A stretch of DNA of 64,000 nt from Bacteroidota bacterium (GCA_013359235.1 JABWCE010000009.1:8796-72795), one strand, 5' to 3'; counted from the stretch's first letter, positions 16,887-43,477 are shown. The notes: generated from the letters alone by a model not told the origin. Numbers and translations are program-made.

Positions 16887-16888
16887 AA

Positions 16889-17530: not shown

Positions 17531-17684
17531 CACAAATTTTACAGAGAAAATTTCATTTTTTTAATCTTTGATGATTTTTTTTTAAAAGTTCAAGTTTTTA
17601 GCTGTAAAAAATGGATAGAACAAGAAGATTGTGTTTCTTTGCAATCTAATTGGAATTTAACTTTGATTTTGTTTAAAATTTAAA

Positions 17685-18377: not shown

Positions 18378-21300
18378 ATGAAAAATAGATTTTACTCTAA
18401 GCTATCTCAGCTATTTGCAACTTTATCGGTATTATTTTTATTTAGCGTTTCAAAAGTTAACGCACAAACTTCTGATACTAAAGTTTTTGATTATGATATT
18501 TCAGGAGGCTGCAATGTGTGTGCAGATTCTTTTAAATACAACTATTACACCTATGATAGTTTTCTTGATGCAACATCAAGTAAAAAATATATTGAAAGTA
18601 TTGAAGTAAAATTAAAGTTTTTTTCATGTTATTCAGGTCCATTATACCTTTATATGAATGGAAATTTAATTGCAACCAATGCTATTGGTTCAATGTGTTC
18701 TTGTAATTCGTGTGACTCATCAACTTTTATAATTAACTCAAACAATGTTATTAAATACTATAATTATAAACAAAAAAATTATTTTATGATTAAAACTAAT
18801 AACGATAATAATATTTATATTGATAGAACAATAATAAAAAGGAATTTTTCAGATAGATTCAATTATGATGCAGGTATATTTAGTATTGATTCACCAATAG
18901 TAAATACTTGTCCCGGATCAAAAAATATAAAGGTTAAAGTTTTTAATAATGGTAAGCAACCAATTAGTTCGCTTACAATAGACTGGAAATGGAATGGAGT
19001 ATCACAATCATCAGCATCAATTTCTGGTACATTAGACACAATTGGAGGTAGTGGAAGCAATAATCAGGTAGTTACAATTGGTTCTAAAACGTTTACAAAA
19101 GGAAAAATAGATACCTTAAAGGTTTGGACAAAAAATCCCGGTGGAGTATCAGATTCACTAAACTCAAATGACACAATGAATTATTTGTTTTATGGCAGCT
19201 ATAGTGATACCATTACTGTTGGAGGAACATCGCCTATGTTTACAACAGTTCAAGCAGCAGTAAACGCTTTAATGACTTATGGAGTTTGTGGTCCTACATA
19301 TATTAAAATAAGACCTGGAACTTATACCGAACAAGTAACCATAAACACAATTCCGGGTGTAAGTGCAAGTAATACTGTTACATTCTTATCTTCAACTCTC
19401 GATAGTTCAAGTGTAATAATTAGTTATAATTCTACTAGTAGTTCAAATAATTTTACGGTAAAAATTAATGAAACAAAATTTATAAATTTCTATAAAATAT
19501 CTATTAGGTCATTAAGTACCAGCTATTCTCGGGTAGTGTCTTTTACTGGAAATGTTGAAAACATAGTTTTTCAGAATTGTTACATTAATGCTGCAATTGT
19601 AACTTCTACAGGTTCATCAAGAACTGCAATTTATAGAAGTTATAATTCAAGTTCAGAAAAATTTAACAATATTTCAATTTTAAATTCTTTGATTAACGGG
19701 GGGTCTTATGGAATTTATTTTTCAAATTCATATGTAAATTATATGAATGGATTTTATGTAAGAAATTGTATTTTTCAGAATCAATACTATGTTAATATTC
19801 GATGTGATTATGCCGAGAATGTTGATATAAAAGGAAATACTTTAAATAAATCTAATTCATCATACACCTGGGGAGGTAATGCAATTTATTTTAATAACAT
19901 AAGCGATAGTATGTGGATTAGAGATAATATAATATCACATGATAACGCAGGTGAATGTATTTACATTAGCGGAGCTTCAGGTTCAAGTACTAATAGATTA
20001 GTAATTGCTAACAATTTTATTTCCGGTAATAATAATAATACAAGCGGTAATCTTATAAATCTTGATTATTGCTCATACATTGATTTAGTTTACAATAATA
20101 CTTTTTGCAGCTATGCAGATAATGCATATTGCTTAAATATAAGCGAAGGAAATAACATTAGATTATTTAACAACAACTTTTACAATGACAATTTAGGTGA
20201 AGTATTCAATATTATTTCCGAAACATCAAGTTGCGTAACTCAATCAGATAATAATAACTTTTATCACGAAGATTATGGACTGGGAAATTGGTATGGAAAT
20301 TATATTGATAATATAGATGATTTAAAAGTTTTAGGTATGGATTCAAACTCTGTAAGTGTAGATCCTAATTACACCTCTCAAGTCAACTTGCACACATATA
20401 ATGTTGACCTAAAAAGTAATGCAAAACCATATAGCGGCATTACAAAAGACATTGATGGAGAATCGCGAAATTCATCAACACCTGATATAGGTGCTGACGA
20501 ATTTAAACTTAAAACCTTAGATGCCGGTATTGTAGATAGAATAAGAGTTACACCAGGTACCAAATGTTTGAAAGTAGTGCTTAAAAATTTTGGTTCAAAC
20601 ACACTTACATCGGCAAAAATTGACTGGAAACTAAATGGAGTATCAAAAACTCAGGTAAACTGGAGTGGTTCACTTGCAAAAGGTGATACTGATATAGTTT
20701 GTTTAGGTAATGTTAATTTTTTGAAAGATTCGTTATATCTTTTAAAAGCTTGGACATCAGCTCCCAATAGCGGAACAGATTCATTAAGTGACAATGATAC
20801 ATTATTAACCGATTTTTATACTTCGCTTAGTGGTGAATACACTATTGGAGGCACAAGTCCTGATTTTACTACATTCACTGCTGCTGTAGATGCTCTCAAT
20901 GATTATGGAATTATAGATTCTGTTTTATTTAAAGTTAGAAATGGAACATATACAGAACAATTAGATTTTGGATATATTGATGGTGCAACACGCGCTAATT
21001 CGGTAATTTTCCAGTCAGAAAGCAAAGACAGTACTAAAGTTACTTTAGAATATGGCTCTTCAAGTTACTATAATAATTATGTTGTGAAATTGGATGAAAC
21101 CCGCGGGTTAACTTTCAGAAAGATGAGAATTAAAAACTTTTCTAGTACATACATGAGGGTTTTTGATGTTGTAGATAGATCAAAGTGGTTTACTCTTGAA
21201 AACAATATTATTACCAACTTAGATTCTACAAATACTTCAGATGAGACTGCTTTGGTATATATAAATTATAATAGTGGTTCAGATTATTTATTTAAACAAA

Positions 21301-24300
21301 ATGTTTTTCATAATGGAAGTTATGCAATTAATATTAATGGTTCTTGGGCAGCTTTTGATAATAAAATAAATATCAAAAACAATATTTTCAAAAACCAAGG
21401 TTATCAGACTATAATGTTGTATAATGTAAGAAATATTGATTTGTCAGGAAACAACATAAATGAAAACCGTCCATATTTTGCTAAAGGTATTTATGTAAGT
21501 TATATATATGGAAAAAACAATATTTACAACAATTACATTTATTTAACCGGAGTGCCCGAAATTGGAATTCAACTGTACAATCAATCAATGTATGCAGGTG
21601 ATTCTTTAAATCTATATAATAATATGATTAGTATTGGCGGAACTTATCCTGGTGTAGGAATATACGGATCAAATTTATACAATACAAATATATATTATAA
21701 TAGCGTATTAAATACATGTACCGACTCTACGTCAAATTCATGTGCTTTTTATTACGACTGGGGAAATATAAGAATGTATAACAATAATTTTGTTCATTTG
21801 AATAACGGATATTCATTATATATTAGTAGTGCGGCATATCAAAAATCAAATTTTAACAATCTATATACAAACGGGACTAAATTTGTATATTGGAACGGAA
21901 ATTCTTATTCAAATTTAAACAGTTATAAAACAGCCTCAAGCAATGATACTAGTTCAGTTTCTATAGATCCTTATTTCACTTCTGTATCAAATCTTCATAC
22001 TTCACATATTGGCTTAAACGCAAAAGCCAAAGTTATTGGAACAATAACCAAAGATTTTGACGGTGATACAAGAAATACAACCACTCCCGATATTGGTGCT
22101 GATGAATTTACCCCATTTTCAAGAGATGCCAGCATTACTAAATTTATAACACCAGGCAATATATTCAAAGCCGACTCTACAAATTTTGAAGTAGTAGTTA
22201 CCAATTTGGGTCTTGATACAATTAAGCAAATTACAGTTAGTGTAAAAATAAATAACGATACACTTCCAAGAAAGTATGTTACAAGGTCATTTGCTTCGGG
22301 TGATACAATTATTGTTAAAATAAATAAAAAATATTACTTACACAAAGACAGTACTTACAAATTTACAGCGTGGTCAAGCCTGCCAAATGGAAGCAGCGAC
22401 CAGAAACCTTCTAACGATACATTAACAAAATCAAACCAGAAGACAGCATTATCTGGAGTATATACTATTGGAGGAACTTCGCCCAATTACAATACATTTA
22501 AAGCAGCCGTAAACGATCTTAAATCGAGAGGAATAATTGACAGTGTGAGATTTAGAGTGAGAATGGGCACATATACTGAACAATTTAGAATACCTCAAAT
22601 AAGTGGAGCAAGCAAAAGAAACAGCATAATTTTTGAATCGGAAGATAAAGACACTACAAAAGTTACTTTAACGTATGCCTCATCTTATTATGATACAAAT
22701 TACGTAGTATATTTAGATGGTGCAGATGGTATTACTTTCAGATATATGACAATTAGTGCCACATCACCATACAGTTACAATAGAATTTTTAACTTGAGAA
22801 ACAATGCACATAACAATACTATATATAAAAATGTATTAATTGCACCAAATACAAATTACGCAGCAGATGAAAATTCATTGATTTACTCTGAAAATTCTGA
22901 TGATAATAATTTACTTATAAACAACAATCATTTTAAAAATGGTGACTATGGAGTTTACTTAAATGGATATGCACCTTACAGTTATGAACATGGACTCGAA
23001 ATTTCTGACAACGTGTTTCAAAATCAATATGGTTACGGAATTTATTTATATTATGGTGATAGTGTAAATATATATAATAATTATTTTTATTCTGATAAAT
23101 ACTATTATTATACAGGATTGTATGCCAATTATTTAAATTCAAATATTAAAATAAATAAAAATTCTTTTGTTATTAAACAGGGAAAAAATGGTATATATTT
23201 ATATAGTACAGGTAATAGTTTTAAGAGAAATTTAATTTCTAATAATGCTTTGTATATAAATAATAATTCATCAAGTTGTTACGGAATAAGATTAAATTAT
23301 TTCAATTATTTTGATGTAATACATAATACGGTAAATTTAGAAGGCACAAATAATTCATCAAGTGCAATTTATGGAGATTATGGAGGTAATAACACATTTT
23401 ATAACAATAACATTGTAAATAGCAGCGGTTATAGTATATATCTAACTTCTACATCTACTTTTACAAATCTAAATTATAATAATTATAAATCTTCAGGTTC
23501 GTATTTGGGATATTGGGCAGGTACATATTGCAGCAACCTTACAAGTTGGCAAACTACAAGTACTAAAGATACATTAAGTAAATCAGTAAATCCAATATTC
23601 TATTCAAATACAAATCTCCACGTAAAAGAAGTTGCATTAAATGGGGCAGCAAAATATTTTAGTATAGTACCCAATGATTTTGATGGACAACCCAGAAACA
23701 CCTCAACTCCCGATATTGGAGCTGATGAATTTGATTTGCCGGCAAATGATGGAGGAATTGCGGCAATAATTGTTCCCAAAAAACCTTTCCCTGCTGATAG
23801 TCAATGGGTAAAAGTCGTTTTGAAAAATTACGGTTCGAATGCTATAACAAGCGTTTCAATAAATTGGAAATTCAATGGTACTACTCAAACAACCAAATCG
23901 TGGACAGGCACATTAAATTCAGGTGATACAGTTCATGTAAAATTGTTAAAGAAATTTTTTGTTGGAGGTACTCCATACAGTACCAAAGTATGGACAACAA
24001 GCCCCAATGGCTCAACAGACCCTGAAAATACTAATGATACAACAGAAGAACTAAATCAATATCCGGCAATGAGCGGAGTATATACCATAGGTGGTTCGTC
24101 GCCTGATTTTGCTAATTTTAATGCAGCAATAAATGCTATGAAACTCGGTGGTATTATAGATTCAGTAAGGTTTGATGTAAGAGACGGAACTTATAACGAA
24201 CAGTTTAGAATTCCAAAAATTGCCGGGGCAGAAAATGAAAATTCAATTATTTTCCAAAGTCAATCAAAAGATAGCAGTAAAGTAATATTGACTTATGCAC

Positions 24301-27300
24301 CGTCTTACTCAAATAACTGGATAGTGAGAATAGATAGTGCCAGAGGTGTAACTTTCAGATATATGAGATTTAATTCAGGCGGAGGCTCATATAATAGAAT
24401 TTTTGTAGTTTATGGTGATGCACAAAACATAAATCTGCACAATTGCTTATTAAAAGGAATATATTCTTCTACAAGTGATTATAGTGCTTTAGTATATACA
24501 AATTATGAATACAGTGATTGTCCAAATTTCAACAATTTTAAGATATATAAAAATATATTTCTTTATGGGTCTTTTGGAGTATATTCATACGGATATTCTT
24601 ATAATAGTAGAGCAAATAATTTGAATATTTATGAAAATAAATTTGAGAACCAATATTATATGGGTTTATATATTTATTATAATAGAAATCTTATAATAAA
24701 TAAAAATAATATTTACCATACAAATTCATATACAGGATATACAAGCGGCTATGGAATTTATTTATACTATTTAACCGAAGGATATAAAATAACATCAAAT
24801 AAAATTTATAATCAAGAATACACAGCTATTTCTGCAACTAATTGTAATGGTGCTGTTGGAGATTCATCATTGGTAGCTAATAATTTTATACATTCAAGAA
24901 ATACAAGCAGCACAACAAATGCTGTTAATTTTTATAACAATTATTATTTAAATTTTTATTATAACAATATACACATAAAAAACACAAATGCAAATTCAAC
25001 ATCAGCATATTTTCAATACCTTGATTATTCAAATATTAATAATAATAATTTTGTAAATATTGGCAATGGTTGGGCTTTATATGCATATTATGGATCAATA
25101 ATTAAGTTTAATAATAATAATTATTATACAAATGGGTCAAAACTATTAAATAGAAACGGTAACAGTTATGCAAATCTCTCTGATTGGCAAACAGCAACTT
25201 CTTATGATTTAAATTCATTAAATGTTAACCCCAATTACACTACAGATACCGACTTGCATACAGATCAAATAGATCTAAATGGTAAGGCACGAAACATAAA
25301 ATATATTATAGATAAAGATATTGATGAACAGAGCCGAGATATTAATACACCTGATATAGGTGCTGATGAGTATGTACCACCAGCAATTGATGCTGGAGTT
25401 ACATTGCTTAAATCACCAGGTTCTACATTTAGTGCAACTACTTATGATATAATAGCAATAATTAAGAATTTTGGAACTGATACTATTAAAAAAGTTAAAG
25501 TAAAAATTAAAATAAATAATGACACTCTTGCTAGAAAGATAGTTACAAAATCAATAAAAACAGGCGATACCGCTCATGTTAAATTAGGTCAATTCACGTT
25601 TCATAAAGATAGTACTTACAATATGTATGTTTGGACTTTTGAACCCAATGATGTTTCGGACCAAAACAGCGAAAACGATACCTTGAAATTATTAAACAAA
25701 CAAACTGCTTTGTCCGGTGTATATACAATCGGTGGAACAACCCCTGATTTTACCAACTTTAAAGCTGCGGTTAATGCACTTAAAACAAGAGGAATAATTG
25801 ATAGTGTAAGGTTTAGGGTGCGAAGCGGAACATATACAGAACAATTAAAAATACCTGAAATAACAGGGGCAGGCAGTAGAAATTCAATAATTTTTGAATC
25901 TGAAAACAAAGATACTTCAAGCGTAACTCTTATGTATAATTCTGTATATTCAGATACGAATTATGTTGTATTACTTGATGGTGCTGATGGTATAACATTC
26001 AGATACCTAATAATAAAAGCCAATTCGAGTTCAAATTACAATAGAGTTATTAGCTTAAAAAATGGAGCCCATTACAATACCATATACAAAAACATAATTG
26101 AGGGTTCAAATACATCATGGGGTTCAGATTACAATGCATTGATATACTCCGGTTCTGATGCTGATAATAACACACAAATAAAAGACAATCATTTTAAAAA
26201 TGGCGACATTGCAATATTTTTATATGGGTATCCATCACAAGCACCATATACATACGAAAAAGGTAACGAGATATCAGGTAATAAAATTTTAAATCCTTAT
26301 TATCGTGGTATTCATTTACAATATCAAGATACTTTAAACATATCTGCAAATTACTTGTACATGGATAAATATAATGGCGCTACTGGTATTTACCTCGATA
26401 ATGCAAAAACCAATATCACTATTTACAGAAATATACTTGAATTAAAACAAGCATATTCTGGATTTAATTTTGATTATTTTGGAACCTCTTTCAACAGAAA
26501 TTTAGTGTCTAATAATGCCATATATATTAAAAACAATAGTTCAGGTTGCAATGGTATATATTTCTATTCGCCTCAATATGTAGATTTAATACATAATAGT
26601 ATAAACGTAGAGTCGTCAATTAACGGTTCAAAAGCTTTATATTTATATTATGGAAGTTACAACAACTTATTCAATAATAATTTTGTTAACTCCGGATATG
26701 GTTATTCTAACTATATATATTCTACATCAAACTTAACAAGTAACTATAATAATTTATTTTCAAATAGTACAACATATTTTGCAAATTGGAACGGAACAAA
26801 CATATCCAATATTTCAGCATGGAAATCAACAACAAGTAAGGATGCAAATAGTATATCTGTTGATCCACTTTATAAGGCAGCAAATAATTTGCACGTGAAA
26901 GAAATGTCATTGAATGCTGCGGGAACTTATTTTAGTTCAGTTCCTTTAGATTTTGATTATGAAACAAGAGATAATACTCATCCCGACATAGGTGCAGATG
27001 AGTTTCAATTACCTTCAAATGATGCAGGAGTTTATTCTATTATTGTACCAAAAAAACCATTCCCTGCTGATAGCCAGTATGTAAAAGTTGCAATTAAAAA
27101 TTTTGGCGGCAATAAAATTTATCAGGTAAATATAGGTTGGACATTTAATGGTGTATTACAAACTCCGATTACATGCACAGATTCAATAGAATCAGGAGAT
27201 ACATTACACATTAAATTAGCTAAAATGTTTTTTGCAAAATATACAAATCACAATGTTAAAGTATGGACATATAGCCCCAATGGAGCATCAGACGGATTAA

Positions 27301-30300
27301 TTACTAACGATACAATGCAGGTTTTAAATCAACAACCTGCAATGAGTGGTGTTTATACTATCGGTGGAGCATCGCCTGATTTTGCAACATTTAACGATGC
27401 TGTAAATGCAATGAAAACATGTGGTATTATTGATTCGGTAAGATTTGATGTGAGGTCGGGTACTTATTACGAAAAATTTATTATTCCGTATATAGCTGGA
27501 GCGAACAACGAAAATTCAATAATTTTCCAAAGTGAATTAAAAGACAGCAGCAAGGTGGTTTTAATGGGTACACCATCATATACAGACAATTATGTAGTAA
27601 GGTTTGATAGTACAATTGGTGTAACTTTTAGATATTTGACACTTAGAACTACTTTACCATTATATTACAACAGAGTTGTAGAAATGAATAGAGAATGTAA
27701 AAAAATTAATATACATGACTGTAATTTAATAGGTAATTATGCATCAGGAACAGATTATAACGAATCAGTAATTTATATTTATAACAGTAATACGGTTTTT
27801 AATTCATTTAATAATATTAAAATTTATAGAAACAATATAATTAATGGTTCTTATGGTGTATATTGTAATGGAAGTTCAAATTTTTCGAAAGGTATTGATT
27901 TGAAAATTTACCAGAATAATTTTTATAACCAATATTATATGGGAATGTTTTTATCGTACAATAGAAATATGTATCTACATAAAAATATAATTGATAGAAA
28001 TATTTCAGGTTATTATACTTGTTTTGGTGTTTATATACAAGAAATTACAGAAGGTTTTGTAGTTACAAATAACAAAATCTCAAATTACAATTATTATGGA
28101 CTATTCGCTTATTATAGCTATGGTTCATCAGGCGATACATCCTTAATAGCTAATAATTTTATTCATGCATCTTCAAGTAATTCAATTAATGGAGCATATA
28201 TTTATAATTGTAATTATATTAATTTCTTTAATAATAATATTAATGTAGTAAGCACTCAATCTTCTTCTAAATCAGCATATTTTTATTCGCTAAGCAATGC
28301 TTCGGTATGCAACAATATTTTTTCTATGAATGGTGCCGGATTTGCAATGTACAATTATTATGGTTCTTTTATAAGAAGTGATTTTAATAATTTTTATACG
28401 GGTGGCACATATTTGATGAATTATAATGGTACCTCGTACACTACATTAAGTGCTTATAAAAGTGCATCAGGTCTCGAAACAAATTCATTTAACGTTGACC
28501 CTGACTATGTAAGCAATACTGATTTACATATAAGAGCAACCGATTTAGACGGCAAAGGCAGAAATCATAAATATTTAATAACAAAAGATATTGACGACCA
28601 AAACAGAAATACTGCAACCCCTGATATAGGTGCTGATGAATTTGATATACCTGCAGCAAATGATGCCGGCATTCTTTCATATATTTCTCCGGTTGCAGCA
28701 TTTGCCGCTGGTAGCAATTCTGTATATGTTGTAATTAAAAACTTTGGTTCAGATTCATTAAAATCTGCAACAATAAAATGGAGAGTAAATGGTAATTTGC
28801 AAACAAGCAAAAGCTGGACGGGTAAACTCAAAACAGGTCAAACAGATACTGTAAATATTGGAAACTACAATTTTATTTCAGGAAAAGATCATGATTTGAA
28901 ATTCTGGACAACTGACCCCAATGGTGTAGCCGATACAACAAATTACAATGATACATTACTTAAAAATGATGTATTTGCAGCACTTGACGGAGTATATACA
29001 GTATATGGCACATTGCCAGATTTTGCTGACCTTAACGAAGCATTTAATGCAATAAAACTCGGAGGCGTAATTGATACTGTTTGGCTCAAATTAAGATCAG
29101 GAACTCATACAGTAAATGCAACATTAAATCAGTATTTGGGTTCAAGTCCCAATCATCCTGTAATAATTGAATCTGCTTCGGGCGATAGTTCTGATGTTGT
29201 ATTAACCGGTACCACAGTTATATATTTAAGTGGAAGTGATTATATAAAATTCAAAAAACTTACCTTCCAATCACATTATCGTTGTATTGAAATAAATAAT
29301 ATGTCTAATGGTATTTCATTTGAAAATTGTCATTTTATTATGGATGATTATTGGTGGTACACTACTTATGGAATTTATTCAGGAAGTTCGGCTGATGATA
29401 GCTTAACGGTAAAAAATTGTAAATTTTCGGATGGTGATATAGCAATTTATATTTATGGTTATCCAAATTCAGGAAGTATTTTAGAAAAAAACCATATAAT
29501 CTCAAATAATTCATTTGTTAATCAATCAAGTAAATCTATTTATGTAAGTTATGTAAATTCGTTAGAAGTAACAAAAAATTTAATTTCTACAACAAGTAGC
29601 AATTCAACATTTATTGTTGAATTTAATCATACACAAAACAAAATTAATTTCAGTTATAACAAGATTATTAGATATGCAGACTATAGTTCAGGTTTGGTAT
29701 TTTATAATCATGTTGGAACAAACACCACTAAGTCATTAATTTCAAACAATTTTATTTCAACTTATGGGTCAACACTTACAAAAGGTGTAGAATTATATAA
29801 TTCTCAATATATTAATTTTTATCATAATAGTTTGAATCAATATGGCAGCGCAACAGGAACAAATTCTTTTTCATTACATATTAACGGTGGTGCTAATTTT
29901 GATATTAGAAACAATGTAATTGCAAATACAGGAAGCGGATATTCGATGTTTTATGAGAATTCGCCATCTTCTGTAAATTCTGATTACAATGATATTTACA
30001 GTTCGGGAACTTATATAGGACGTATAAATACTACCGATTATTCAACTCTATCAAATTGGCAAAGTGCAACATCAAAAGAAGCAAATTCAATTTCTTTCAA
30101 CCCAAGTTACGTTTCTAATACTGATTTGCATTCAAATTTAGCCGCACTTGATAGTGCCTGCCTATATATTTCATCAGTAACTGATGATATTGATAATGAG
30201 TCTAGAAATACATCATATCCTGATATTGGAGCTGATGAATTCCAGAGTTTAGCAAATAATTTGGGAGTAGTTTCGGTAATTAAACCGGAAACAACATGTG

Positions 30301-33300
30301 GCTTAGACTCAACATATATAAAACTTAGAGTATTTAATTTTGGTAATCAAAACCAGGTTAATTACCCATTAAAATATAAATTGAGTTCGTCACCTACAAT
30401 TCAATCTGTGACAATTACAGATACTATTAAACCAGGCCAGTTTTACGAATATCAATTTGCTGCAAAAGAAGCCATTTCGTTTAATACAACTTTAAGCATT
30501 AAGGCATGGACAGATTTATCAGCAGAAATGTACCGAAATAATGATAGTATATTACAATCATTTATTAATTACTCAACACCTGATTCTGTTAAGTTTATGT
30601 CACCTTCTAATGGTACATCAAACATTGATTTTCCATTTACACTTTCATGGCTGCCTTCTACAGGTGCAACAAAATACGATATATATATTTGGGATACCGC
30701 AACTTCAAAACCACCCACACCAACAGTATCTAATCATTCGCAAATAAGTTATCAGATTACAGCTGGTTTAGCTTATGGCAAAACATACTACTGGCAGGTG
30801 ATTGCAAAAAATCCAATATGTTATACAAATGGTGTTGTACAATTATTTACTATTCGTCATTTACCCGATTTAATTGTTGATGAAGTGAATGGTCCTCATA
30901 CAGCTTTTTCAGGAACAAATATTAGTGTGTCATGGAAAGTAAAAAATCAAGGTCTTGGTGCTACAAATAAAAATTGGCATGATAATGTTTATTTATCTTC
31001 AGATACAATATGGGATATAACCGATTTAAATCTAGGAAATACTCAAAACGCTACCGCACTTAATCCATCACAATCATATAACTCTTCATTATCATTTACA
31101 ATACCAAATGGTACTACAGGAAATTATTATTTAATAGTATTTGCTGATAAATACACAAATTTAAAAGAAACAAATGATGACAATAATACAAAAAGAGATA
31201 CAGGAAAAATTAAAATAACTCTCACCCCACCACCTGATTTACAGGTTATGTCTGTTTCAAGACCTTCTGTAGTGTTTTCAGGTTCAACAGTAAACACTAC
31301 ATATACAGTAAAGAACAAAGGAACCGGTGATACACGTTACGGCGGATGGTATGATCATATCTACCTCTCTACCGAAAAGGTTAAAAACGGTAGCTCTTAT
31401 CATATTGGAACAAATTGGAGAAGTGGAAATTTGAAGGTTGATAGTTCGTATTCAGTTACAAAATCTGTTACAATTCCAAACTATATTTCAGGTAAGTATT
31501 TTTTTGTTGTAGTTACTGATTATAATAATAATGAATATGAATATGCTTTTGAAAGTAATAATTCAACAGGAAGCGATACAATTAAGGTATTATTAACACC
31601 TCCACCTGATTTGATTGTTAAAAATGTTGAATTAAAAGACACTGTAAGCAATTCAGAGAATGTATTAATTAATTATAATGTTATAAATGATGGTGGTACT
31701 TCTACCGGAAATAATTTTTATGATGCATTGTATTTATGTCCTACCCCTACATTCAATTTGTCTATTTCATCTTGGATAGGGCAAATGTTTCATTATAACT
31801 TGGCAAGTAAAGATACAAGTGAAGTAAGTAGTTATTTTCAAATGCCCAAAAATATTAATGGTAAATATTACTTGTTCGTTTTAACAGATTATTATAATAG
31901 TATAAACGAAGTAAGCAATGAAGGTAATAACACTTCAATACGTGATTCAATAATTATTTTTAGCCCTGATTTAATTGTTACAAAAGTAATTGTTAACAGT
32001 ATTGACTCAACAGGTTCTACTACCCCAATTAAATGGACTGTTAAAAACGTTGGAAAAGGCAATGATTATCAAGGATTAAGATATGACAGTATATTTATTT
32101 CGCCAAGTTCCACTTGGAATCGTTCTAATGCCAAAGCTTTAGGAAGGTTTAATTATTCAAACAATCTTTTAGTTGGCGACTCTATTGATAGAAATGAGAT
32201 AGTTACAATACCCGATGGTTATTTAGGCACTAAGTATTTTTATGTATTTACTGATGGTACAAATAATGTTTACGAATGGACTAAAGAAAATAATAATATA
32301 AATGTCAGCGACTCTATGGTTGTAAAATTATCACCTTATCCTGATTTATTGCCTTTAGTTTTAAGTTATTACGATTCTGCCGAAGCCGGTCAATTGATTA
32401 GCTTAATTTACAAAGTAAAAAATCAAGGAACTAATATTGCAAACCCAACTTGGAAAGATAAATTTTACTTGTCAAAAGATTCAACATTCAATCCTACCAA
32501 AGTAATTGAGTTGAATTCTGTTACAAAATCATCTATTTTAAAAATAGATTCATCATACTCATCTGCAATATATTTTACATTACCAAATTCAATAGCACGT
32601 GGTGATTATTATTATTGGGTATTTACTGATGCACAATTAAATGTTTTTGAATATACAAATGATTCAAATAACAAAGCAAGGTCACCTAAAGCATTTATTG
32701 ACGGGTATCCTCCGGTAGATTTAAAAGTTAATTGTCCTACAATATATAATGATACTTTAAAATCAGGAAGTACATATTCAATTGCATATTCAGTCACAAA
32801 CATCGGAGATGCAGAAACACAGCAGTCTTCATGGAATGACGGAGTTTATTTATCAACCGACTCTATTTTGAGTTCTGGAGATATAAAATTAAAAACAATA
32901 CCAACAAATAAATCTCTTAAAAAAGACAGTAGTTACAGCATATCTTCTACTATCACAATTCCAAATGGTACAGAGGGCAAATATTATTTGATTGTAAAAA
33001 CTGATGTTGGAAAAGTAATTACCGATGTTGACACAAATAATAATAAGAAAACAGTTTGTAAAGGCAATGGTTTTGCAAAATTATTTGTTATTGAACTTAC
33101 TCCTCCACCCGATTTGAGATTTATTTCATGGAATGTACCATCAACAGCTATATCAGGTCAAAAAATGAAAATAAAATGGAAAGTTGAAAATAATGGAACT
33201 GGCGCAACTCGTTCGGGCTCATGGACAGATAAAGTTTATTTATCAACCGATTATAATATTGATGGAAATGACTATGGTTTTGGCTATGTAAGACATTCGG

Positions 33301-34793
33301 GAAATGTAAGCAATGGCGGTAATTATACTGATTCAGTTGAAAATTATATTCCAATTGATATAACAGGAAACTATATTGTAATACTCAAAACTGATGATGT
33401 TAATGAAGAGTATGAACACACAAACGAAGGTAATAATACAGTTACAGGTATTACAACAATAAGTAAAGCACCTCCAGCAGACCTTATTGTTTCATATATT
33501 TCTTCTCCTGACAGTGTAATTAGTGGTAAAAATATTAATGTTACCTATAAAGTGAAAAACATTGGCAGCAATCCTGCTTCAGGGTATTTGAGAGACAATA
33601 TATATCTTTCTGTAGATAATAAGCAAGATGCCTCAGATTATAAAATAAATTCTGAATTGTATTCAATTTCGCTTGGAACAGGCTCCGAAAACACAAAAAA
33701 TCATACTTTAAATGTTAGCGGTGTTCCATTGGGTGATTATTATGTAATAGTTTCTACCGATGTAATGAATAATATAAACGAAATTAGCGATACCAACAAT
33801 TCATCGTATTCATCAAATAAACTTAATGTAAATGTTCCAATTCTTAAAATTGGTGTAAAGGAATTTGATACATTGCCTGATAATAGTAAAATTTATTACA
33901 GAATATTGATACCCGATGAATTAGAAGGAGAAACAATGCTCATTACATTAAAAGCTGATTCAATAAAGGGAAATAATGAAATGTATGTTAGATTTAACGA
34001 CATAGCAAGTTCATCGAGTTTTGATTATAAACATGGTGATCCATTTAAGGGAAATCAGGAAATTATTATCCCCGAACTAAAAAAAGGTACATATTATTTG
34101 TTAACAACTGGAAAAACTTCAGCTGGAGATACTCAAAAAATAAGTCTTTTAGCACGAATTTTACCATTTGAAATAAGAAAAGTTTCGCCTAAAAAAGGTG
34201 GAAACACTGGTGAAGTTACTGTATTAATTGAAGGTTCTAAATTTACTGATGAAACAATTTTCATGCTATTAGATACAGCTTTAGGCGGCTCTGGTATTAC
34301 TGATGGTGAAGAAGAAATGTATCAATATTCAACTTCTTCGCCATTAAATTCAAACTTTATTGATCCTACTAAAGTATATGCAACATTTAATTTAAAGGGT
34401 ATGAAAAAGAGCAAGTATCATGTAAAAGCTGTAAAAGAAATGGAAGAAACTATTCTGAAAAATTCATTTACAATAGAAGCAGGAACAAATGAAAATCTAA
34501 TTGTAACGATGGAAAGGCCCGGCAATACCAGACGCAATATGATATTGTATTGGGATATTATTTTTGCAAATTTTGGCAATACAGATATTGTAAATAAGAA
34601 GTTAAGAATTGTGAGTTCAGGTGGTGCTCCAATAGCTTTAGACCCCAACGATTTAAAAAAGGTATATAGAGAAATAGAAGTAACTGTTCAGGGCGATGAA
34701 GGTCCACCAAATAGATTGTCGCCTGGCGGATATGGAAAAGTAAGGATATATACAGAATCTTCAGGAGCATTAGGTATAACAATAATTAAATAA
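18378..34793 (+). CDS. Giant (5471 aa) secreted modular cell-surface protein: N-terminal Cys-containing domain, ~7-8 tandem ~540-aa modules (CARDB-like Ig domain plus right-handed parallel beta-helix ending in the …TPDIGADEF motif), an Fn3-like domain, ~10 tandem CARDB domains, and a PPC-like domain
   Basis: Single uninterrupted ORF with an N-terminal signal peptide. The PDIGADEF motif recurs at ~1.63-kb spacing. The C-terminal repeats carry the CARDB-like pattern LTPPPDL.V…SG…Y.V.N.G…W.D.VYLS. Confidence 0.85.
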   Translation: MKNRFYSKLSQLFATLSVLFLFSVSKVNAQTSDTKVFDYDISGGCNVCADSFKYNYYTYDSFLDATSSKKYIESIEVKLKFFSCYSGPLYLYMNGNLIATNAIGSMCSCNSCDSSTFIINSNNVIKYYNYKQKNYFMIKTNNDNNIYIDRTIIKRNFSDRFNYDAGIFSIDSPIVNTCPGSKNIKVKVFNNGKQPISSLTIDWKWNGVSQSSASISGTLDTIGGSGSNNQVVTIGSKTFTKGKIDTLKVWTKNPGGVSDSLNSNDTMNYLFYGSYSDTITVGGTSPMFTTVQAAVNALMTYGVCGPTYIKIRPGTYTEQVTINTIPGVSASNTVTFLSSTLDSSSVIISYNSTSSSNNFTVKINETKFINFYKISIRSLSTSYSRVVSFTGNVENIVFQNCYINAAIVTSTGSSRTAIYRSYNSSSEKFNNISILNSLINGGSYGIYFSNSYVNYMNGFYVRNCIFQNQYYVNIRCDYAENVDIKGNTLNKSNSSYTWGGNAIYFNNISDSMWIRDNIISHDNAGECIYISGASGSSTNRLVIANNFISGNNNNTSGNLINLDYCSYIDLVYNNTFCSYADNAYCLNISEGNNIRLFNNNFYNDNLGEVFNIISETSSCVTQSDNNNFYHEDYGLGNWYGNYIDNIDDLKVLGMDSNSVSVDPNYTSQVNLHTYNVDLKSNAKPYSGITKDIDGESRNSSTPDIGADEFKLKTLDAGIVDRIRVTPGTKCLKVVLKNFGSNTLTSAKIDWKLNGVSKTQVNWSGSLAKGDTDIVCLGNVNFLKDSLYLLKAWTSAPNSGTDSLSDNDTLLTDFYTSLSGEYTIGGTSPDFTTFTAAVDALNDYGIIDSVLFKVRNGTYTEQLDFGYIDGATRANSVIFQSESKDSTKVTLEYGSSSYYNNYVVKLDETRGLTFRKMRIKNFSSTYMRVFDVVDRSKWFTLENNIITNLDSTNTSDETALVYINYNSGSDYLFKQNVFHNGSYAININGSWAAFDNKINIKNNIFKNQGYQTIMLYNVRNIDLSGNNINENRPYFAKGIYVSYIYGKNNIYNNYIYLTGVPEIGIQLYNQSMYAGDSLNLYNNMISIGGTYPGVGIYGSNLYNTNIYYNSVLNTCTDSTSNSCAFYYDWGNIRMYNNNFVHLNNGYSLYISSAAYQKSNFNNLYTNGTKFVYWNGNSYSNLNSYKTASSNDTSSVSIDPYFTSVSNLHTSHIGLNAKAKVIGTITKDFDGDTRNTTTPDIGADEFTPFSRDASITKFITPGNIFKADSTNFEVVVTNLGLDTIKQITVSVKINNDTLPRKYVTRSFASGDTIIVKINKKYYLHKDSTYKFTAWSSLPNGSSDQKPSNDTLTKSNQKTALSGVYTIGGTSPNYNTFKAAVNDLKSRGIIDSVRFRVRMGTYTEQFRIPQISGASKRNSIIFESEDKDTTKVTLTYASSYYDTNYVVYLDGADGITFRYMTISATSPYSYNRIFNLRNNAHNNTIYKNVLIAPNTNYAADENSLIYSENSDDNNLLINNNHFKNGDYGVYLNGYAPYSYEHGLEISDNVFQNQYGYGIYLYYGDSVNIYNNYFYSDKYYYYTGLYANYLNSNIKINKNSFVIKQGKNGIYLYSTGNSFKRNLISNNALYINNNSSSCYGIRLNYFNYFDVIHNTVNLEGTNNSSSAIYGDYGGNNTFYNNNIVNSSGYSIYLTSTSTFTNLNYNNYKSSGSYLGYWAGTYCSNLTSWQTTSTKDTLSKSVNPIFYSNTNLHVKEVALNGAAKYFSIVPNDFDGQPRNTSTPDIGADEFDLPANDGGIAAIIVPKKPFPADSQWVKVVLKNYGSNAITSVSINWKFNGTTQTTKSWTGTLNSGDTVHVKLLKKFFVGGTPYSTKVWTTSPNGSTDPENTNDTTEELNQYPAMSGVYTIGGSSPDFANFNAAINAMKLGGIIDSVRFDVRDGTYNEQFRIPKIAGAENENSIIFQSQSKDSSKVILTYAPSYSNNWIVRIDSARGVTFRYMRFNSGGGSYNRIFVVYGDAQNINLHNCLLKGIYSSTSDYSALVYTNYEYSDCPNFNNFKIYKNIFLYGSFGVYSYGYSYNSRANNLNIYENKFENQYYMGLYIYYNRNLIINKNNIYHTNSYTGYTSGYGIYLYYLTEGYKITSNKIYNQEYTAISATNCNGAVGDSSLVANNFIHSRNTSSTTNAVNFYNNYYLNFYYNNIHIKNTNANSTSAYFQYLDYSNINNNNFVNIGNGWALYAYYGSIIKFNNNNYYTNGSKLLNRNGNSYANLSDWQTATSYDLNSLNVNPNYTTDTDLHTDQIDLNGKARNIKYIIDKDIDEQSRDINTPDIGADEYVPPAIDAGVTLLKSPGSTFSATTYDIIAIIKNFGTDTIKKVKVKIKINNDTLARKIVTKSIKTGDTAHVKLGQFTFHKDSTYNMYVWTFEPNDVSDQNSENDTLKLLNKQTALSGVYTIGGTTPDFTNFKAAVNALKTRGIIDSVRFRVRSGTYTEQLKIPEITGAGSRNSIIFESENKDTSSVTLMYNSVYSDTNYVVLLDGADGITFRYLIIKANSSSNYNRVISLKNGAHYNTIYKNIIEGSNTSWGSDYNALIYSGSDADNNTQIKDNHFKNGDIAIFLYGYPSQAPYTYEKGNEISGNKILNPYYRGIHLQYQDTLNISANYLYMDKYNGATGIYLDNAKTNITIYRNILELKQAYSGFNFDYFGTSFNRNLVSNNAIYIKNNSSGCNGIYFYSPQYVDLIHNSINVESSINGSKALYLYYGSYNNLFNNNFVNSGYGYSNYIYSTSNLTSNYNNLFSNSTTYFANWNGTNISNISAWKSTTSKDANSISVDPLYKAANNLHVKEMSLNAAGTYFSSVPLDFDYETRDNTHPDIGADEFQLPSNDAGVYSIIVPKKPFPADSQYVKVAIKNFGGNKIYQVNIGWTFNGVLQTPITCTDSIESGDTLHIKLAKMFFAKYTNHNVKVWTYSPNGASDGLITNDTMQVLNQQPAMSGVYTIGGASPDFATFNDAVNAMKTCGIIDSVRFDVRSGTYYEKFIIPYIAGANNENSIIFQSELKDSSKVVLMGTPSYTDNYVVRFDSTIGVTFRYLTLRTTLPLYYNRVVEMNRECKKINIHDCNLIGNYASGTDYNESVIYIYNSNTVFNSFNNIKIYRNNIINGSYGVYCNGSSNFSKGIDLKIYQNNFYNQYYMGMFLSYNRNMYLHKNIIDRNISGYYTCFGVYIQEITEGFVVTNNKISNYNYYGLFAYYSYGSSGDTSLIANNFIHASSSNSINGAYIYNCNYINFFNNNINVVSTQSSSKSAYFYSLSNASVCNNIFSMNGAGFAMYNYYGSFIRSDFNNFYTGGTYLMNYNGTSYTTLSAYKSASGLETNSFNVDPDYVSNTDLHIRATDLDGKGRNHKYLITKDIDDQNRNTATPDIGADEFDIPAANDAGILSYISPVAAFAAGSNSVYVVIKNFGSDSLKSATIKWRVNGNLQTSKSWTGKLKTGQTDTVNIGNYNFISGKDHDLKFWTTDPNGVADTTNYNDTLLKNDVFAALDGVYTVYGTLPDFADLNEAFNAIKLGGVIDTVWLKLRSGTHTVNATLNQYLGSSPNHPVIIESASGDSSDVVLTGTTVIYLSGSDYIKFKKLTFQSHYRCIEINNMSNGISFENCHFIMDDYWWYTTYGIYSGSSADDSLTVKNCKFSDGDIAIYIYGYPNSGSILEKNHIISNNSFVNQSSKSIYVSYVNSLEVTKNLISTTSSNSTFIVEFNHTQNKINFSYNKIIRYADYSSGLVFYNHVGTNTTKSLISNNFISTYGSTLTKGVELYNSQYINFYHNSLNQYGSATGTNSFSLHINGGANFDIRNNVIANTGSGYSMFYENSPSSVNSDYNDIYSSGTYIGRINTTDYSTLSNWQSATSKEANSISFNPSYVSNTDLHSNLAALDSACLYISSVTDDIDNESRNTSYPDIGADEFQSLANNLGVVSVIKPETTCGLDSTYIKLRVFNFGNQNQVNYPLKYKLSSSPTIQSVTITDTIKPGQFYEYQFAAKEAISFNTTLSIKAWTDLSAEMYRNNDSILQSFINYSTPDSVKFMSPSNGTSNIDFPFTLSWLPSTGATKYDIYIWDTATSKPPTPTVSNHSQISYQITAGLAYGKTYYWQVIAKNPICYTNGVVQLFTIRHLPDLIVDEVNGPHTAFSGTNISVSWKVKNQGLGATNKNWHDNVYLSSDTIWDITDLNLGNTQNATALNPSQSYNSSLSFTIPNGTTGNYYLIVFADKYTNLKETNDDNNTKRDTGKIKITLTPPPDLQVMSVSRPSVVFSGSTVNTTYTVKNKGTGDTRYGGWYDHIYLSTEKVKNGSSYHIGTNWRSGNLKVDSSYSVTKSVTIPNYISGKYFFVVVTDYNNNEYEYAFESNNSTGSDTIKVLLTPPPDLIVKNVELKDTVSNSENVLINYNVINDGGTSTGNNFYDALYLCPTPTFNLSISSWIGQMFHYNLASKDTSEVSSYFQMPKNINGKYYLFVLTDYYNSINEVSNEGNNTSIRDSIIIFSPDLIVTKVIVNSIDSTGSTTPIKWTVKNVGKGNDYQGLRYDSIFISPSSTWNRSNAKALGRFNYSNNLLVGDSIDRNEIVTIPDGYLGTKYFYVFTDGTNNVYEWTKENNNINVSDSMVVKLSPYPDLLPLVLSYYDSAEAGQLISLIYKVKNQGTNIANPTWKDKFYLSKDSTFNPTKVIELNSVTKSSILKIDSSYSSAIYFTLPNSIARGDYYYWVFTDAQLNVFEYTNDSNNKARSPKAFIDGYPPVDLKVNCPTIYNDTLKSGSTYSIAYSVTNIGDAETQQSSWNDGVYLSTDSILSSGDIKLKTIPTNKSLKKDSSYSISSTITIPNGTEGKYYLIVKTDVGKVITDVDTNNNKKTVCKGNGFAKLFVIELTPPPDLRFISWNVPSTAISGQKMKIKWKVENNGTGATRSGSWTDKVYLSTDYNIDGNDYGFGYVRHSGNVSNGGNYTDSVENYIPIDITGNYIVILKTDDVNEEYEHTNEGNNTVTGITTISKAPPADLIVSYISSPDSVISGKNINVTYKVKNIGSNPASGYLRDNIYLSVDNKQDASDYKINSELYSISLGTGSENTKNHTLNVSGVPLGDYYVIVSTDVMNNINEISDTNNSSYSSNKLNVNVPILKIGVKEFDTLPDNSKIYYRILIPDELEGETMLITLKADSIKGNNEMYVRFNDIASSSSFDYKHGDPFKGNQEIIIPELKKGTYYLLTTGKTSAGDTQKISLLARILPFEIRKVSPKKGGNTGEVTVLIEGSKFTDETIFMLLDTALGGSGITDGEEEMYQYSTSSPLNSNFIDPTKVYATFNLKGMKKSKYHVKAVKEMEETILKNSFTIEAGTNENLIVTMERPGNTRRNMILYWDIIFANFGNTDIVNKKLRIVSSGGAPIALDPNDLKKVYREIEVTVQGDEGPPNRLSPGGYGKVRIYTESSGALGITIIK
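18880..30250 (+). repeat. Tandem array of ~1.6-kb diverged coding modules inside the giant gene
   Basis: PDIGADE(F/Y) motifs end near 20500, 22105, 23730, 25370, 27005, 28645 and 30245. The modules are collinear at the protein level but diverged at the DNA level. Confidence 0.7.
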
Positions 34794-34801
34794 GAATAGC
34801 C

Positions 34802-37800
34802 ATGAAAAAATTAATATTAAATACAGCAAAAGTAATTTCGATAGCAATGTCACTTTTTGTGACAAACATATACGCTCAACAAAACAAAGAGCTGATTTTA
34901 GAAGCAGAATACAATAACTCTAATTTGCTATTTAGTTTCAAACCGCATCCATCTTGGAGTTATACTTCACTTGAAAACTTGCCTAAAGTTTTATCTGAAA
35001 TTTATAATGTCTCAGGAAACTTCACTTTCAAAGCAATGTCAACCGATAAAGGTGAAGGCTATACTGTCACAAAGTACATGCAAACAATAAATGGTTATCC
35101 TGTTGATGGCGGCGATATAATTATAAGCAGAAAAAGTAATGGACAAATTGAACAAATTATTGGTACTTTACGTGACCCGCTGACAATTGTTCCTCCAACA
35201 ATAAGTTCTGAAAAGGCATTAGAAATTGCAAATAATACTTTGGAAATTACACCAGATGATTATTTTAAAATTGCAAATGAACCAATACGACAACCAAAAA
35301 TTAATCTTAAATATGCAGCATTAAATGGAGTAGAAAATGCAAAAGTTGTACTTTGTTATGAAATTGAAATTTTAACAAATAAACCCACAAGAGTTTTTCT
35401 ATATATAAATGCAACCAATGGAAATGTGGAGTTTTATCACAAAGCAATGCATACTGCAAATGGTACCGGAAACTCGTTATATTCTGGCAATGGGTTAGCA
35501 GTAAATACTAAAAAGATAAGTAATACTAATTACAGATTAGAAGATACAGCCCGTAAAATAAGAACAATATATTGTTATAACGATACCCTTCATAATGGTA
35601 GTTGGATAATAGCTTGGGATGCAGATAATAATTTTACTTCCACTTGGCAAAAAGCGGGTATAGATGTTCATTATGGCATTGCAAAAACCTATGACTATTT
35701 TAAAACTAAACACAACAGAACATCTTATGACAATAATGGAACATTGATTAGGAATTTTTATGCATACTTACCTGTAGATGAAGCAAGAAATGGTGTAACA
35801 GGTTACAATAATGCATTTTGGAATGGATCAGAAATGATGTATGGAACAGGTGATGGAAATCTTTTTTCAGCACTGGTATCTGTTGATATTGCAGGTCATG
35901 AATTTTCACATGCCGTAGTAGAAAAAACTGCTAATCTTCAGTATCGCAATGAATCGGGAGCTTTAAATGAATCATTTGCCGATATTTTTGGTTATTGTAT
36001 TGAAGATTTTACCGAAGGTGGAAGTAATTGGCAAATTGGTGAAGATTGTTTTTCTCCAGCAACTGCAGGTGATGCATTAAGAAACATGCAAACACCAAAA
36101 ACACCCAATACTGTTCATAATGCTTTTAAACAACCAAATTGCTACGATGGAACATATTGGACATCGCAAGTAGGTTGTGTTCCAAATGACAATAATGACC
36201 TTTGTGGAGTTCACGGAAATTCAGGCGTCGGTAATTATTGGTTCTACCTACTTACCGCAGGAAGTGGAGGAGATAAACAAAATGACAAAAATAAAACCTA
36301 CAATGTTACCGGTATTACAAGAGCAAAAAGCGAAAAAATAGTTTATCGTGCTTTATCACAGTTTATGACTGCACATTCAGACTATAAAGCAGCAAGAAAA
36401 GCAACTTTACTCGCTGCCGAAAAACTGTACGGATATAAATCAAACGAATGGAAACAAGTATGTAATGCTTGGTATGCAGTAAATGTTGGAGATAAATGTT
36501 GTGATACATTAGAAGTAAAATTTGATGTAATCAATCCAAAATGTCATGATTCGCATGATGGAGAAATTGATCTTACAATAAAAAAGAAAGGTGGAGGAAA
36601 AGAACCTGAATACTATTGGCACAAAGGCGATACTACAAGTGTAGTATTTTCACGAAGTCAAGATGTTGTGGGGTTAGATTCAGGAAATTATGTGGTTGTA
36701 ATAAAAGATACTGTTGCAAAATGCGAAATTGTAGCAGATACAAATCTTGTAGCTCCTGATAAATTAAAATTGACTGTTTCAGGCAGCGGAGTGATTTTTG
36801 GAGCATGCCAAAGATCATTTACTGTTACTTTAACTGCTAATGCAAGTGGTGGTACTGAGCCATATACTTACAATTGGCCCAATGGAATAAAAGAAATTAT
36901 TTGTAGCGGTGGTAGTGGATTTTTCAGAACTTATACTGCAACAGTAATTGATAAAAATAATTGCACAGCCGAAGCAACGGCTTGGGTTATGTACATACCA
37001 ATTACTTGTTCGTACGACCCCAATGATATTATTGGTCCGCCAAGCTATGGTGATAAAAAATGGGTTTCGGTAAATGCTACTTTACCATATAAAATTAGAT
37101 ACGAAAATGATCCCAAATTTGCAACAGGACCTGCACAAAAAGTTTCAATTACTCATCCATTGGATACAAATGTAGATTTAACTTCGTTCAGGCTTTCAAG
37201 TTTTGGTTTTTATAAATACAATTTTGATGTTCCGAGCAATTCAACTACATATTCAGACAGATTAGATTTAAGAGATTCATTTGGGATATATCTTGATGTT
37301 ACAGCCGGAGTTGATATTAATACACGTGAAGCATTTTGGATTTTTGAAAGTATTGATCCTACAACCGGGGTACCTCCGCTCGATGGAAATAAAGGTTATT
37401 TAGCCATTAATGACACTATAACGCACAAGGGCGAAGGTTATGTAAATTATACCATAAAACCAAAATCAACTGCAAAAACACTCGATAGTATTAGAGCAAA
37501 AGCTACAATAGTTTTTGATGATAATACTCCAGTGCCTACCCCACGTATTCATAATATAATTGATGCAGTAGCACCAACAAGTTATATTAAAGATGTACCC
37601 GCTGTAATTGACTCAAATATTGTTGAAATGTATATCAAAGCAAAAGATGATACACTTGGTTCGGGTGTTGGTTACTTTAATATTTTTGTTTCTGAAAACG
37701 ATGGACCTTACAATTTAGTAGCAAACAAAATACAAGATACAATTTATAAATTCAGGGGCAATTTTGGTTCATCTTACAAAGCTTATTCTATTGCATTTGA

Positions 37801-43442: not shown

Positions 43443-43477
43443 AGAACCTGTAAAATATTTTACAGGTTCTTTTTTTA
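43443..43477 (+). terminator. Rho-independent terminator after the M4-SprB gene
   Basis: Palindrome AGAACCTGTAAAATATTTTACAGGTTCT followed by TTTTTT. Confidence 0.7.

Follow-up and report, generated by a model that had tools for sequence, protein, structure and literature searches.

A giant Bacteroidota protein with a conserved C-terminal domain that matches no T9SS sorting model, encoded beside a sorting-domain-bearing partner

A gene at positions 18378-34793 (+ strand) encodes a giant protein of 5471 aa, NUM31917.1, that matches no model of T9SS C-terminal sorting domains (CTDs) and ends in a conserved beta-sandwich, here called CT. The gene lies in a 64-kb window from a Bacteroidota MAG, by which we mean the whole stretch of 64,000 nucleotides that was analysed (GC ~30%). 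It is followed by a gene for a secreted M4 protease with SprB repeats and a CTD of its own, which closes the transcription unit. This gene order is conserved in relatives, and in other lineages the two parts are fused. The terminal domain family is new, and the split/fusion relationship is clean. We tentatively propose, with a confidence somewhat short of even, that the giant protein and its M4-SprB neighbour form a split two-subunit fibre, in which the partner would supply the sorting tag and the TIG-CT unit would serve as the junction.

Architecture and conserved C-terminus of the giant protein

The reading frame runs uninterrupted from an ATG to a single stop codon, as the original prediction of a 5471-aa modular protein had it, and the product is sequence-identical to NUM31917.1, which NCBI labels 'right-handed parallel beta-helix repeat-containing protein'. 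All features of the giant gene, of the partner gene and of the terminator behind it lie on the + strand. The expected signal peptide is present: read by eye, the N-terminus MKNRFYSKLSQLFATLSVLFLFSVSKVNA|QTSD is of the Sec/SPI type (aa 1-30, 18378-18467), with cleavage predicted after VNA and Gln as the mature N-terminus. It is followed by a Cys-rich domain of 130 aa (aa 31-160, 18468-18857) that matches no family in Pfam or NCBIfam and is kept in the closest relatives only.

Seven tandem modules (aa 161-3955, 18858-30242) come next, each composed of a CARDB-like domain and a right-handed parallel beta-helix. The modular repeat had been recognised correctly, and the earlier count of seven or eight modules of ~540 aa is now fixed at exactly seven, of 533-549 aa apiece, with PDIGADE[FY] at every module end. 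Pfam matches CARDB within the modules and Beta_helix (PF13229) in module 7, the latter with an E-value of 6e-8 and 32.9 bits against a gathering cut-off of 25.9. Pairwise identity between modules is 30-54%. Modules 3 and 5 are 52-54% identical, as are modules 4 and 6, suggesting that a two-module unit was duplicated.

Directly after module 7 we find one CARDB-like domain and an Fn3-like domain (aa 3956-4160, 30243-30857), the latter matching Pfam fn3 with an E-value of 6e-4, under the gathering score. An array of eight CARDB domains (aa 4161-5150, 30858-33827) then forms the front of a C-terminal cassette that is conserved family-wide; CARDB (PF07705) is matched in eight stretches with an E-value of 8.5e-67 and 222 bits against a cut-off of 22.7. 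The domain types originally assigned to this region (Fn3-like, CARDB and PPC-like) are all matched, and the estimate of about ten CARDB domains is replaced by eight according to Pfam, plus the CARDB-like one that follows module 7. The cassette continues with a PPC-like domain (aa 5151-5261, 33828-34160), kept in relatives, and a TIG/IPT-like beta-sandwich (aa 5262-5368, 34161-34481), modelled with a pLDDT of ~90. Both are weak Pfam matches below the gathering score, with E-values of 0.027 and 0.055, respectively. The CT domain itself, a terminal beta-sandwich of ~103 aa (aa 5369-5471, 34482-34790), was delimited by profile search, alignment and structure modelling. AlphaFold predicts TIG and CT together as two beta-sandwiches with a pLDDT of 85, and CT alone with a pLDDT of 89.

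The last 150 and 220 aa of the giant protein have no Pfam or NCBIfam match at E<=0.1. A profile built from the last 210 aa and run against 1.84 billion cluster representatives retrieved 3889 proteins at E<1e-3, 1553 at E<1e-10 and 273 at E<1e-30, among them the giant protein as P0008 (E 4e-87). CT, with a length of ~103-104 aa, is present in 145 of the top 152 representatives, in a single copy each time. It lies no more than 30 aa from the C-terminus in 142 of these 145 proteins, the exceptions being P0072, P0102 and P0115, where CT is internal. Conserved positions in the alignment include N30, G32, N33, D35, S45, L79-R80-P81, G85 and Y90; a conserved Lys/Asp/Asn triad is not found. Judged by these profile matches, CT is a large, undescribed and unannotated domain family.

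The C-terminus of the giant protein is native and conserved. All seven close homologues of its last 332 aa (41-52% identity) stop at the same residue. Loss of a CTD by truncation, an alternative that the original prediction proposed to check against orthologues, is ruled out, as the relatives all end at the same place. Furthermore, the cassette of ~8 CARDB, PPC, TIG and CT domains is common to 96 of 97 long relatives, while the N-terminal passenger is variable, with beta-helix modules in 45 long relatives and something else in 51. The cassette therefore acts like a shared stalk or base on which distal regions can be exchanged. The giant protein belongs to this cassette family both by its CARDBx8-PPC-TIG-CT end and by the DUF7619/DUF7743 protein encoded downstream.

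Comparison of CT with T9SS sorting domains

The predicted absence of type A and type B sorting domains from the giant protein is borne out by Pfam and NCBIfam models, scans of homologues, HHalign (for type A) and Foldseek, all of which were negative. An HMM scan of the last 150 aa, the check suggested at the outset, matched no T9SS C-terminal domain model. For type A (TIGR04183/PF18962), neither the last 150 nor the last 220 aa give a match at E<=0.1; for type B (TIGR04131/PF13585, CHU_C), Pfam and NCBIfam give no match in the giant protein or its relatives. As positive controls, both neighbouring proteins match the type A model, and the window protein at 56606-60370 matches CHU_C at 1e-10. 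Three other large CTD-bearing proteins had been counted in the window. We find two, namely a glycoside-hydrolase-like protein with a type A CTD (44117-47434) and the large protein at 56606-60370, in which CHU_C represents a type B CTD.

When 32+46 diverse homologues were scanned singly at E<=10, no T9SS sorting model was matched, and the recurrent weak matches were to CARDB, DUF11, DUF7507 and choice-of-anchor repeats only. HHalign comparison of a 234-sequence CT profile with an 18-sequence profile of type A CTDs taken from the same loci gave a probability of 1.6%, the same as for the CARDB and TIG controls; this profile comparison covered type A only, type B being compared through the Pfam and NCBIfam models. 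NCBIfam gave no match to the ChiA-type type C domain (cl41395), a model that is possibly absent from the release. With the CT model, Foldseek found no match in the PDB at E<=1e-3 and no CTD structure among the top 50. Its best matches are generic E-set sandwiches, such as CBM3, a transglutaminase beta-barrel (TM 0.62) and CARDB (TM 0.50). The two-domain TIG+CT model matched Fab light chains only, a generic tandem-Ig match, and a PDB sequence search with a profile of the TIG-CT unit found no relative. None of these comparisons revealed a likeness of CT to known CTDs, be it in sequence, profile or fold.

A PorP/SprF carrier gene adjacent to the giant gene, a feature of type B loci, was not found among the downstream genes checked, namely the M4-SprB gene, a 197-aa ORF without a family and the gene for the glycoside-hydrolase-like type A cargo. 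Likewise, the 64-kb window contains no T1SS, TpsB, PorP/SprF or other dedicated exporter genes.

The partner gene, its relatives and the split and fused forms

The partner gene (34802-43426) starts with an ATG at 34802, which leaves 8 nt after the giant gene, one fewer than the 9-bp gap first reported. It encodes a signal peptide, an FTP/PepSY propeptide, the M4 and M4_C domains, an SprB-like region (aa 566-735), DUF7619, DUF7743, at least 20 SprB repeats and a Por_Secre_tail type A sorting domain (aa 2796-2870, 43187-43411), in this order. The HEFSH and NESFAD motifs of the M4 metalloprotease are intact, and the enzyme is apparently active. The DUF7619/DUF7743 block (aa 736-1010, 37007-37831) is the part that accompanies the CT cassette from phylum to phylum, either linked or fused to it. 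The literature counts DUF7619 among the CnaA-like intramolecular isopeptide domains, with a relationship to DUF11/CLIPPER (PMC12617251).

The junction between the two genes (34794-34801) contains no terminator-like hairpin. In contrast to this junction without a terminator, a canonical intrinsic terminator, GAACCTGTAAAA-TA-TTTTACAGGTTC followed by T7 (43444-43476), with a 12-bp stem and a 2-nt loop, sits 14 nt past the partner stop. The giant and partner genes thus look bicistronic, forming a two-gene unit closed by the terminator, and they are probably translationally coupled, since the gap is only 8 nt. Two small ORFs, at 15780-18242 and at 43492-44085 (197 aa, with only a sub-threshold EGF-like match), belong to no family of Pfam or NCBIfam and lack a counterpart in all related loci; they were therefore left outside the system.

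An orthologue of the M4-SprB gene lies 6-17 nt after the giant gene in loci L001-L003 and in at least seven genome loci, on independent contigs. More generally, a same-strand gene with its own signal peptide starts within ~100 nt of the giant stop in nearly every Bacteroidota locus, and in most of them within 60 nt. This next gene falls into several classes: M4+DUF7619 proteins resembling that of the window, for which the identity per region reaches 60-83%; DUF7619 proteins that lack M4; RHS/YD toxins with a signal peptide (12 loci; Pfam RHS_repeat x12 and DUF6531); and unannotated proteins of ~400 and ~450 aa, followed by a DUF7619 protein of ~884 aa. Downstream sequence of at least 2.5 kb was available for 52 loci, and 37 of them have a DUF7619 gene one to three genes downstream on the same strand. 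The other 15 include six RHS-only loci, all of which have an ORF running past the sequence end, and wherever the sequence continues a DUF7619 gene follows the RHS gene. A type A CTD was detected on the DUF7619 ORF in nine loci.

The M4 protease and the SprB repeats are replaced or absent in many relatives, and M4 is missing from most partner variants. As far as these comparisons of loci tell, the conserved partner element is the DUF7619/DUF7743 block with the type A CTD, and not M4 or the SprB repeats. A single conserved docking partner is not obvious, because the next gene varies and the DUF7619 gene is sometimes two genes away.

The taxonomic distribution was obtained with a hand-built degenerate DNA pattern for the conserved TIG motif, which matches 59 of 114 family members. 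In a control, the pattern gave one match in the window and none in shuffles. Scanning one genome per GTDB species yielded 94 loci, 88 of them with CT, and 85 of these belong to Bacteroidota. The carriers in this phylum include Bacteroidales, Saprospiraceae/Lewinellaceae, Chitinophagaceae, Flavobacteriales, Cytophagales, Lentimicrobiaceae and Sphingobacteriales, with four isolates (Spirosoma profusum BT702, Lunatibacter salilacus CUG 91308, Pseudoflavitalea rhizosphaerae KACC 18655 and Paraflavitalea pollutisoli H1-2-19X). Of the Bacteroidota loci, 82 have a complete end, and in all 82 the stop codon follows CT after 0-19 aa.

The three carriers outside Bacteroidota are the cyanobacteria Dolichospermum and Prochloron and one Chloroflexota MAG. 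In all three, the ORF extends more than 900 aa past CT into DUF7619/DUF7743. The order in these fused proteins is CT, a linker, a lipase-like alpha/beta-hydrolase (GHSLGAQ) and the DUF7619/DUF7743 block, which has 45-52% identity to aa 736-1010 of the partner. P0072 and P0102 resemble the cyanobacterial fused form. P0115, a Bacteroidota-type protein, continues after CT with ~25 residues, an SprB-like region, DUF7619 and a canonical type A CTD, with no signal peptide between CT and the fused SprB-like/DUF7619 region. That the giant and M4-SprB proteins act as a functional pair, as had been suggested from their tight spacing, is supported by the 6-17 nt distance kept in relatives, the absence of a terminator at the junction, and the fusion in other phyla and in P0115.

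No significant homology was found between the segment that follows CT in the fused proteins and the partner's mature N-terminus (HHalign probability 1%), so the split did not simply keep a contiguous interface. A 'P..W' motif shared by the two segments, noticed by eye, was rejected as not significant, with an E-value of ~0.05-0.1 in tiny databases.

The gap of only 8 nt and the fused versions elsewhere would also be expected if the stop codon at 34791 were an artefact or a recent pseudogenising split, or if the two ORFs were joined by recoding. We consider this extremely improbable and effectively refuted by the comparative data. The same split occurs in 82 Bacteroidota genomes and in several metagenome contigs (36-60% identity), with gaps of ~0-100 nt in nearly all loci. 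In addition, the downstream ORF lies in a different frame and has a signal peptide of its own at the start, with the full M4 propeptide behind it.

The main rival to the split fibre, which we regard as rather unlikely, is that CT, perhaps with the TIG-like domain, is a fourth, undescribed class of T9SS signal. Recognised by the translocon or a dedicated carrier, it would allow the giant protein to be exported without its neighbour. In all 82 Bacteroidota genomes and in 142 of the 145 representatives, the very C-terminus is formed by CT, a beta-sandwich of ~100 aa, and T9SS CTDs are known to be 7-stranded beta-sandwiches (PMC10994853). There is a precedent for unrecognised signal classes in the type C domain of ChiA, whose C-terminal ~100 aa are neither type A nor type B and yet are required for secretion (PMC10202324). 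Moreover, CT is never terminal in phyla without a T9SS, and co-option as a fourth class of CTD would account as well for its being strictly terminal in the phylum that has one. This position is a point against the split fibre, as it is also what is expected of a sorting signal.

However, the ChiA signal was shown experimentally, whereas CT matches nothing in NCBIfam or Pfam and also occurs internally outside Bacteroidota. Similarity of CT to known CTDs in sequence, profile or fold was not found, no PorV- or PorP-like carrier gene adjoins the CT gene in the window, and the constant split point could reflect one ancestral event and not selection. The internal CT copies of Cyanobacteria, Chloroflexota and P0115 cannot act as C-terminal signals, and they are equally conserved (E 1e-22 to 5e-30 in the phyla without a T9SS), which argues that the core role of CT is structural or an interaction, and not T9SS targeting. 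For the same reason, a primary role of CT as a T9SS signal is unlikely, and this equal conservation is the main support for the split-fibre reading.

A possible split fibre and its relation to known systems

The split-fibre reading would place the giant protein at the cell surface as the CTD-less large subunit of a split fibre. Its rear cassette (~8 CARDB, PPC-like, TIG-like and CT) would be the stalk, which is covalently continuous with an enzyme domain and DUF7619/DUF7743 in Cyanobacteria and Chloroflexota, and which in P0115 is likewise covalently joined to the partner-type half. For DUF7619, an Ig-like fold stabilised by an isopeptide bond is predicted. In Bacteroidota, the chain would have been cut exactly after CT, the second half becoming a separate secreted protein encoded by the next gene. 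Here, this second half would comprise the M4 protease, DUF7619/DUF7743, the SprB repeats and the type A sorting domain. The two genes would be co-transcribed and probably translationally coupled, and the partner would carry the sole signal for T9SS export and anchoring. The terminal TIG-CT unit of the giant subunit may dock on the partner, which would carry the subunit along in export or hold it at the surface. The seven beta-helix modules, probably glycan-binding, would then project outward, with the protease at the base.

Within this arrangement, we infer the physical docking of the two proteins, their co-export through the T9SS and the surface location of the giant protein. Because the fibre is one chain elsewhere and only the second half bears a T9SS signal, export or anchoring in trans via the partner is favoured. 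We know of no experiment in which the T9SS exported a CTD-less protein in trans. In the literature, we found no description of CTD-less piggyback export by this system, and no paper linking CARDB giants to the T9SS or describing the CT family.

Another explanation is that the giant protein leaves the cell by a route other than the T9SS (outer-membrane vesicles, lysis or another transporter), or that it is not surface-exposed, and that its linkage to DUF7619 reflects a shared function only, such as processing of the fibre by the protease. This would agree with the absence of a known sorting or anchor domain and with the apparently active M4 protease of the partner (HEFSH, NESFAD), which could process the giant protein; the fused cyanobacterial and Chloroflexota versions must also leave the cell without a T9SS. 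We nevertheless regard this explanation as distinctly unlikely. No gene for an alternative exporter is present in the window, and arrays of Ig-like and beta-helix domains preceded by a Sec signal, here 5471 aa long, typify extracellular fibres. M4 is missing from most partner variants, whereas DUF7619 and the CTD are retained, and P0115, fused as it is to a CTD-bearing chain, implies that both halves end up in the same place.

At present, a protein counts as T9SS cargo if it has a C-terminal sorting domain of type A, B or C. The CT family is large, widespread and apparently extracellular, and none of these is recognised in it; CTD-based predictions of T9SS secretomes would miss the giant proteins that bear it. 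These proteins are genetically tied to a CTD-bearing protein and are fused to a partner-type region in other lineages, which poses a testable question for the T9SS: are CTD-less subunits handled via a partner, or does another class of signal exist? Together, the CT domain family and a defined split/fusion pair provide new material that is suited to interaction studies.

The export of the giant protein proposed in the split-fibre reading would resemble hitchhiker or complex secretion by the Tat system and the T2SS, although the machineries differ. The T2SS exports assembled AB5 toxins; from the T9SS, a hitchhiker mechanism is not known. In Tat hitchhikers such as PaoABC, a signal-less subunit is exported bound to a signal-bearing partner (PMC4273604).

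The locus is reminiscent of the SprB and RemA adhesins of Flavobacterium johnsoniae (sprCDBF-type operons), which are also repetitive Bacteroidota surface proteins of several thousand residues, encoded in operons with accessory genes. The likeness to SprB resides in the partner, with its at least 20 SprB repeats and T9SS CTD. SprB and RemA have CTDs of their own (type B and type A, respectively), in contrast to the giant protein. SprB needs a PorP/SprF-like protein encoded downstream (PMC9143113, PMC10994853), and unlike in the SprB system no PorP/SprF gene is found near the giant gene. Tandem Ig-like stalk domains and a variable distal binding region are shared with fibrillar adhesins that have CLIPPER/DUF11-type isopeptide stalks. 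In contrast to these adhesins, the stalk would here be split over two polypeptides, and CT is without the conserved Lys/Asp/Asn triad.

A broader reading goes beyond this locus and appears to us somewhat unlikely, namely that the family represents an undescribed, widespread Bacteroidota fibre system with T9SS export or anchoring in trans or via a fourth class of C-terminal signal, with interchangeable payloads, acting as a device for contact-dependent foraging or antagonism. If it were true, the payloads would be the M4 protease here, the lipase in the fused forms and the RHS toxins in 12 loci. The resemblance to polymorphic RHS/YD toxin loci is limited to those 12 related loci, in which an RHS toxin gene directly follows the CT-bearing giant gene; unlike them, the locus in the window has the M4 protease instead, and no T6SS or Tc-toxin components are involved. 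The link between the fibre and RHS toxins in these relatives hints at a role in interbacterial antagonism.

Modules and N-terminal domain of the giant protein

In the module region of the giant protein (window 18858-30242), modules 3-6 (aa 1245-3422) form two pairs of closest relatives, with module 3 matching module 5 (54%) and module 4 matching module 6 (52%). This pairing indicates the duplication of a two-module block inside the gene. The Cys-rich N-terminal domain (CNVCADSF...SMCSCNSCDSS; window 18468-18857, aa 31-160) has no match in Pfam or NCBIfam and is common only to the closest relatives from the profile search, P0010, P0016, and P0017. This domain may form the distal tip of the fibre.

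Gene neighbourhoods and payloads in related loci

In 12 related loci (L007, L027, L039, L049, L065, L071, L072, L079, L085, L087, L088, and L097), the first gene downstream of the one bearing CT, the terminal beta-sandwich domain, encodes an RHS/YD-repeat toxin with a signal peptide. These toxins carry DUF6531 and 12 RHS repeats, and their C-terminal toxin ends differ. Where the sequence runs on, at L065, L087, and L097, the RHS gene is followed by a DUF7619 gene. This arrangement suggests that some CT-bearing fibres serve in toxin delivery.

In the fused non-Bacteroidota proteins (L038, L075, L084, P0072, and P0102), CT is followed by a lipase-like alpha/beta-hydrolase (GHSLGAQ), which holds the place of the M4 protease in the window's partner, the M4-SprB protein. 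In P0072, regions resembling SdrD-B, S8 peptidase, and Calx-beta are present as well. The enzyme carried as payload beside DUF7619 is thus interchangeable.

A Bacteroidales-type four-gene order recurs at L012, L019, L054, L058, L083, and L096, where the giant gene precedes genes for a ~400-aa protein, a ~450-aa unannotated protein, and a DUF7619 protein (~884 aa) that carries a type A CTD. The ~400-aa protein, which belongs to no Pfam family, has an 'AGPDK' PKD-like N-terminus and a C-terminal half rich in Gly and Ser.

Terminator and other genes of the window

A perfect palindromic hairpin, GAACCTGTAAAA-TA-TTTTACAGGTTC, followed by T7, is located at window 43444-43476, 14 nt past the M4-SprB stop codon. 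Because A-runs flank this hairpin, it could stop transcription arriving from either side.

Four small ORFs (368, 213, 185, and 197 aa; window 15780-18242 and 43492-44085) lie on either side of the giant gene/M4-SprB pair. No Pfam or NCBIfam family matches any of them, the ORF at 43492-44085 showing only a sub-threshold EGF-like match, and the related loci contain no counterpart of any of the four. The N-termini of several resemble those of signal peptides or lipoproteins.

The original prediction counted three other large CTD-bearing proteins in the window; we find two further T9SS cargo genes. The first (window 44117-47434) encodes an F510_1955-like glycosylhydrolase that carries Fn3 and a type A CTD; the product of the second (window 56606-60370) is 1254 aa long and has a CHU_C type B CTD.
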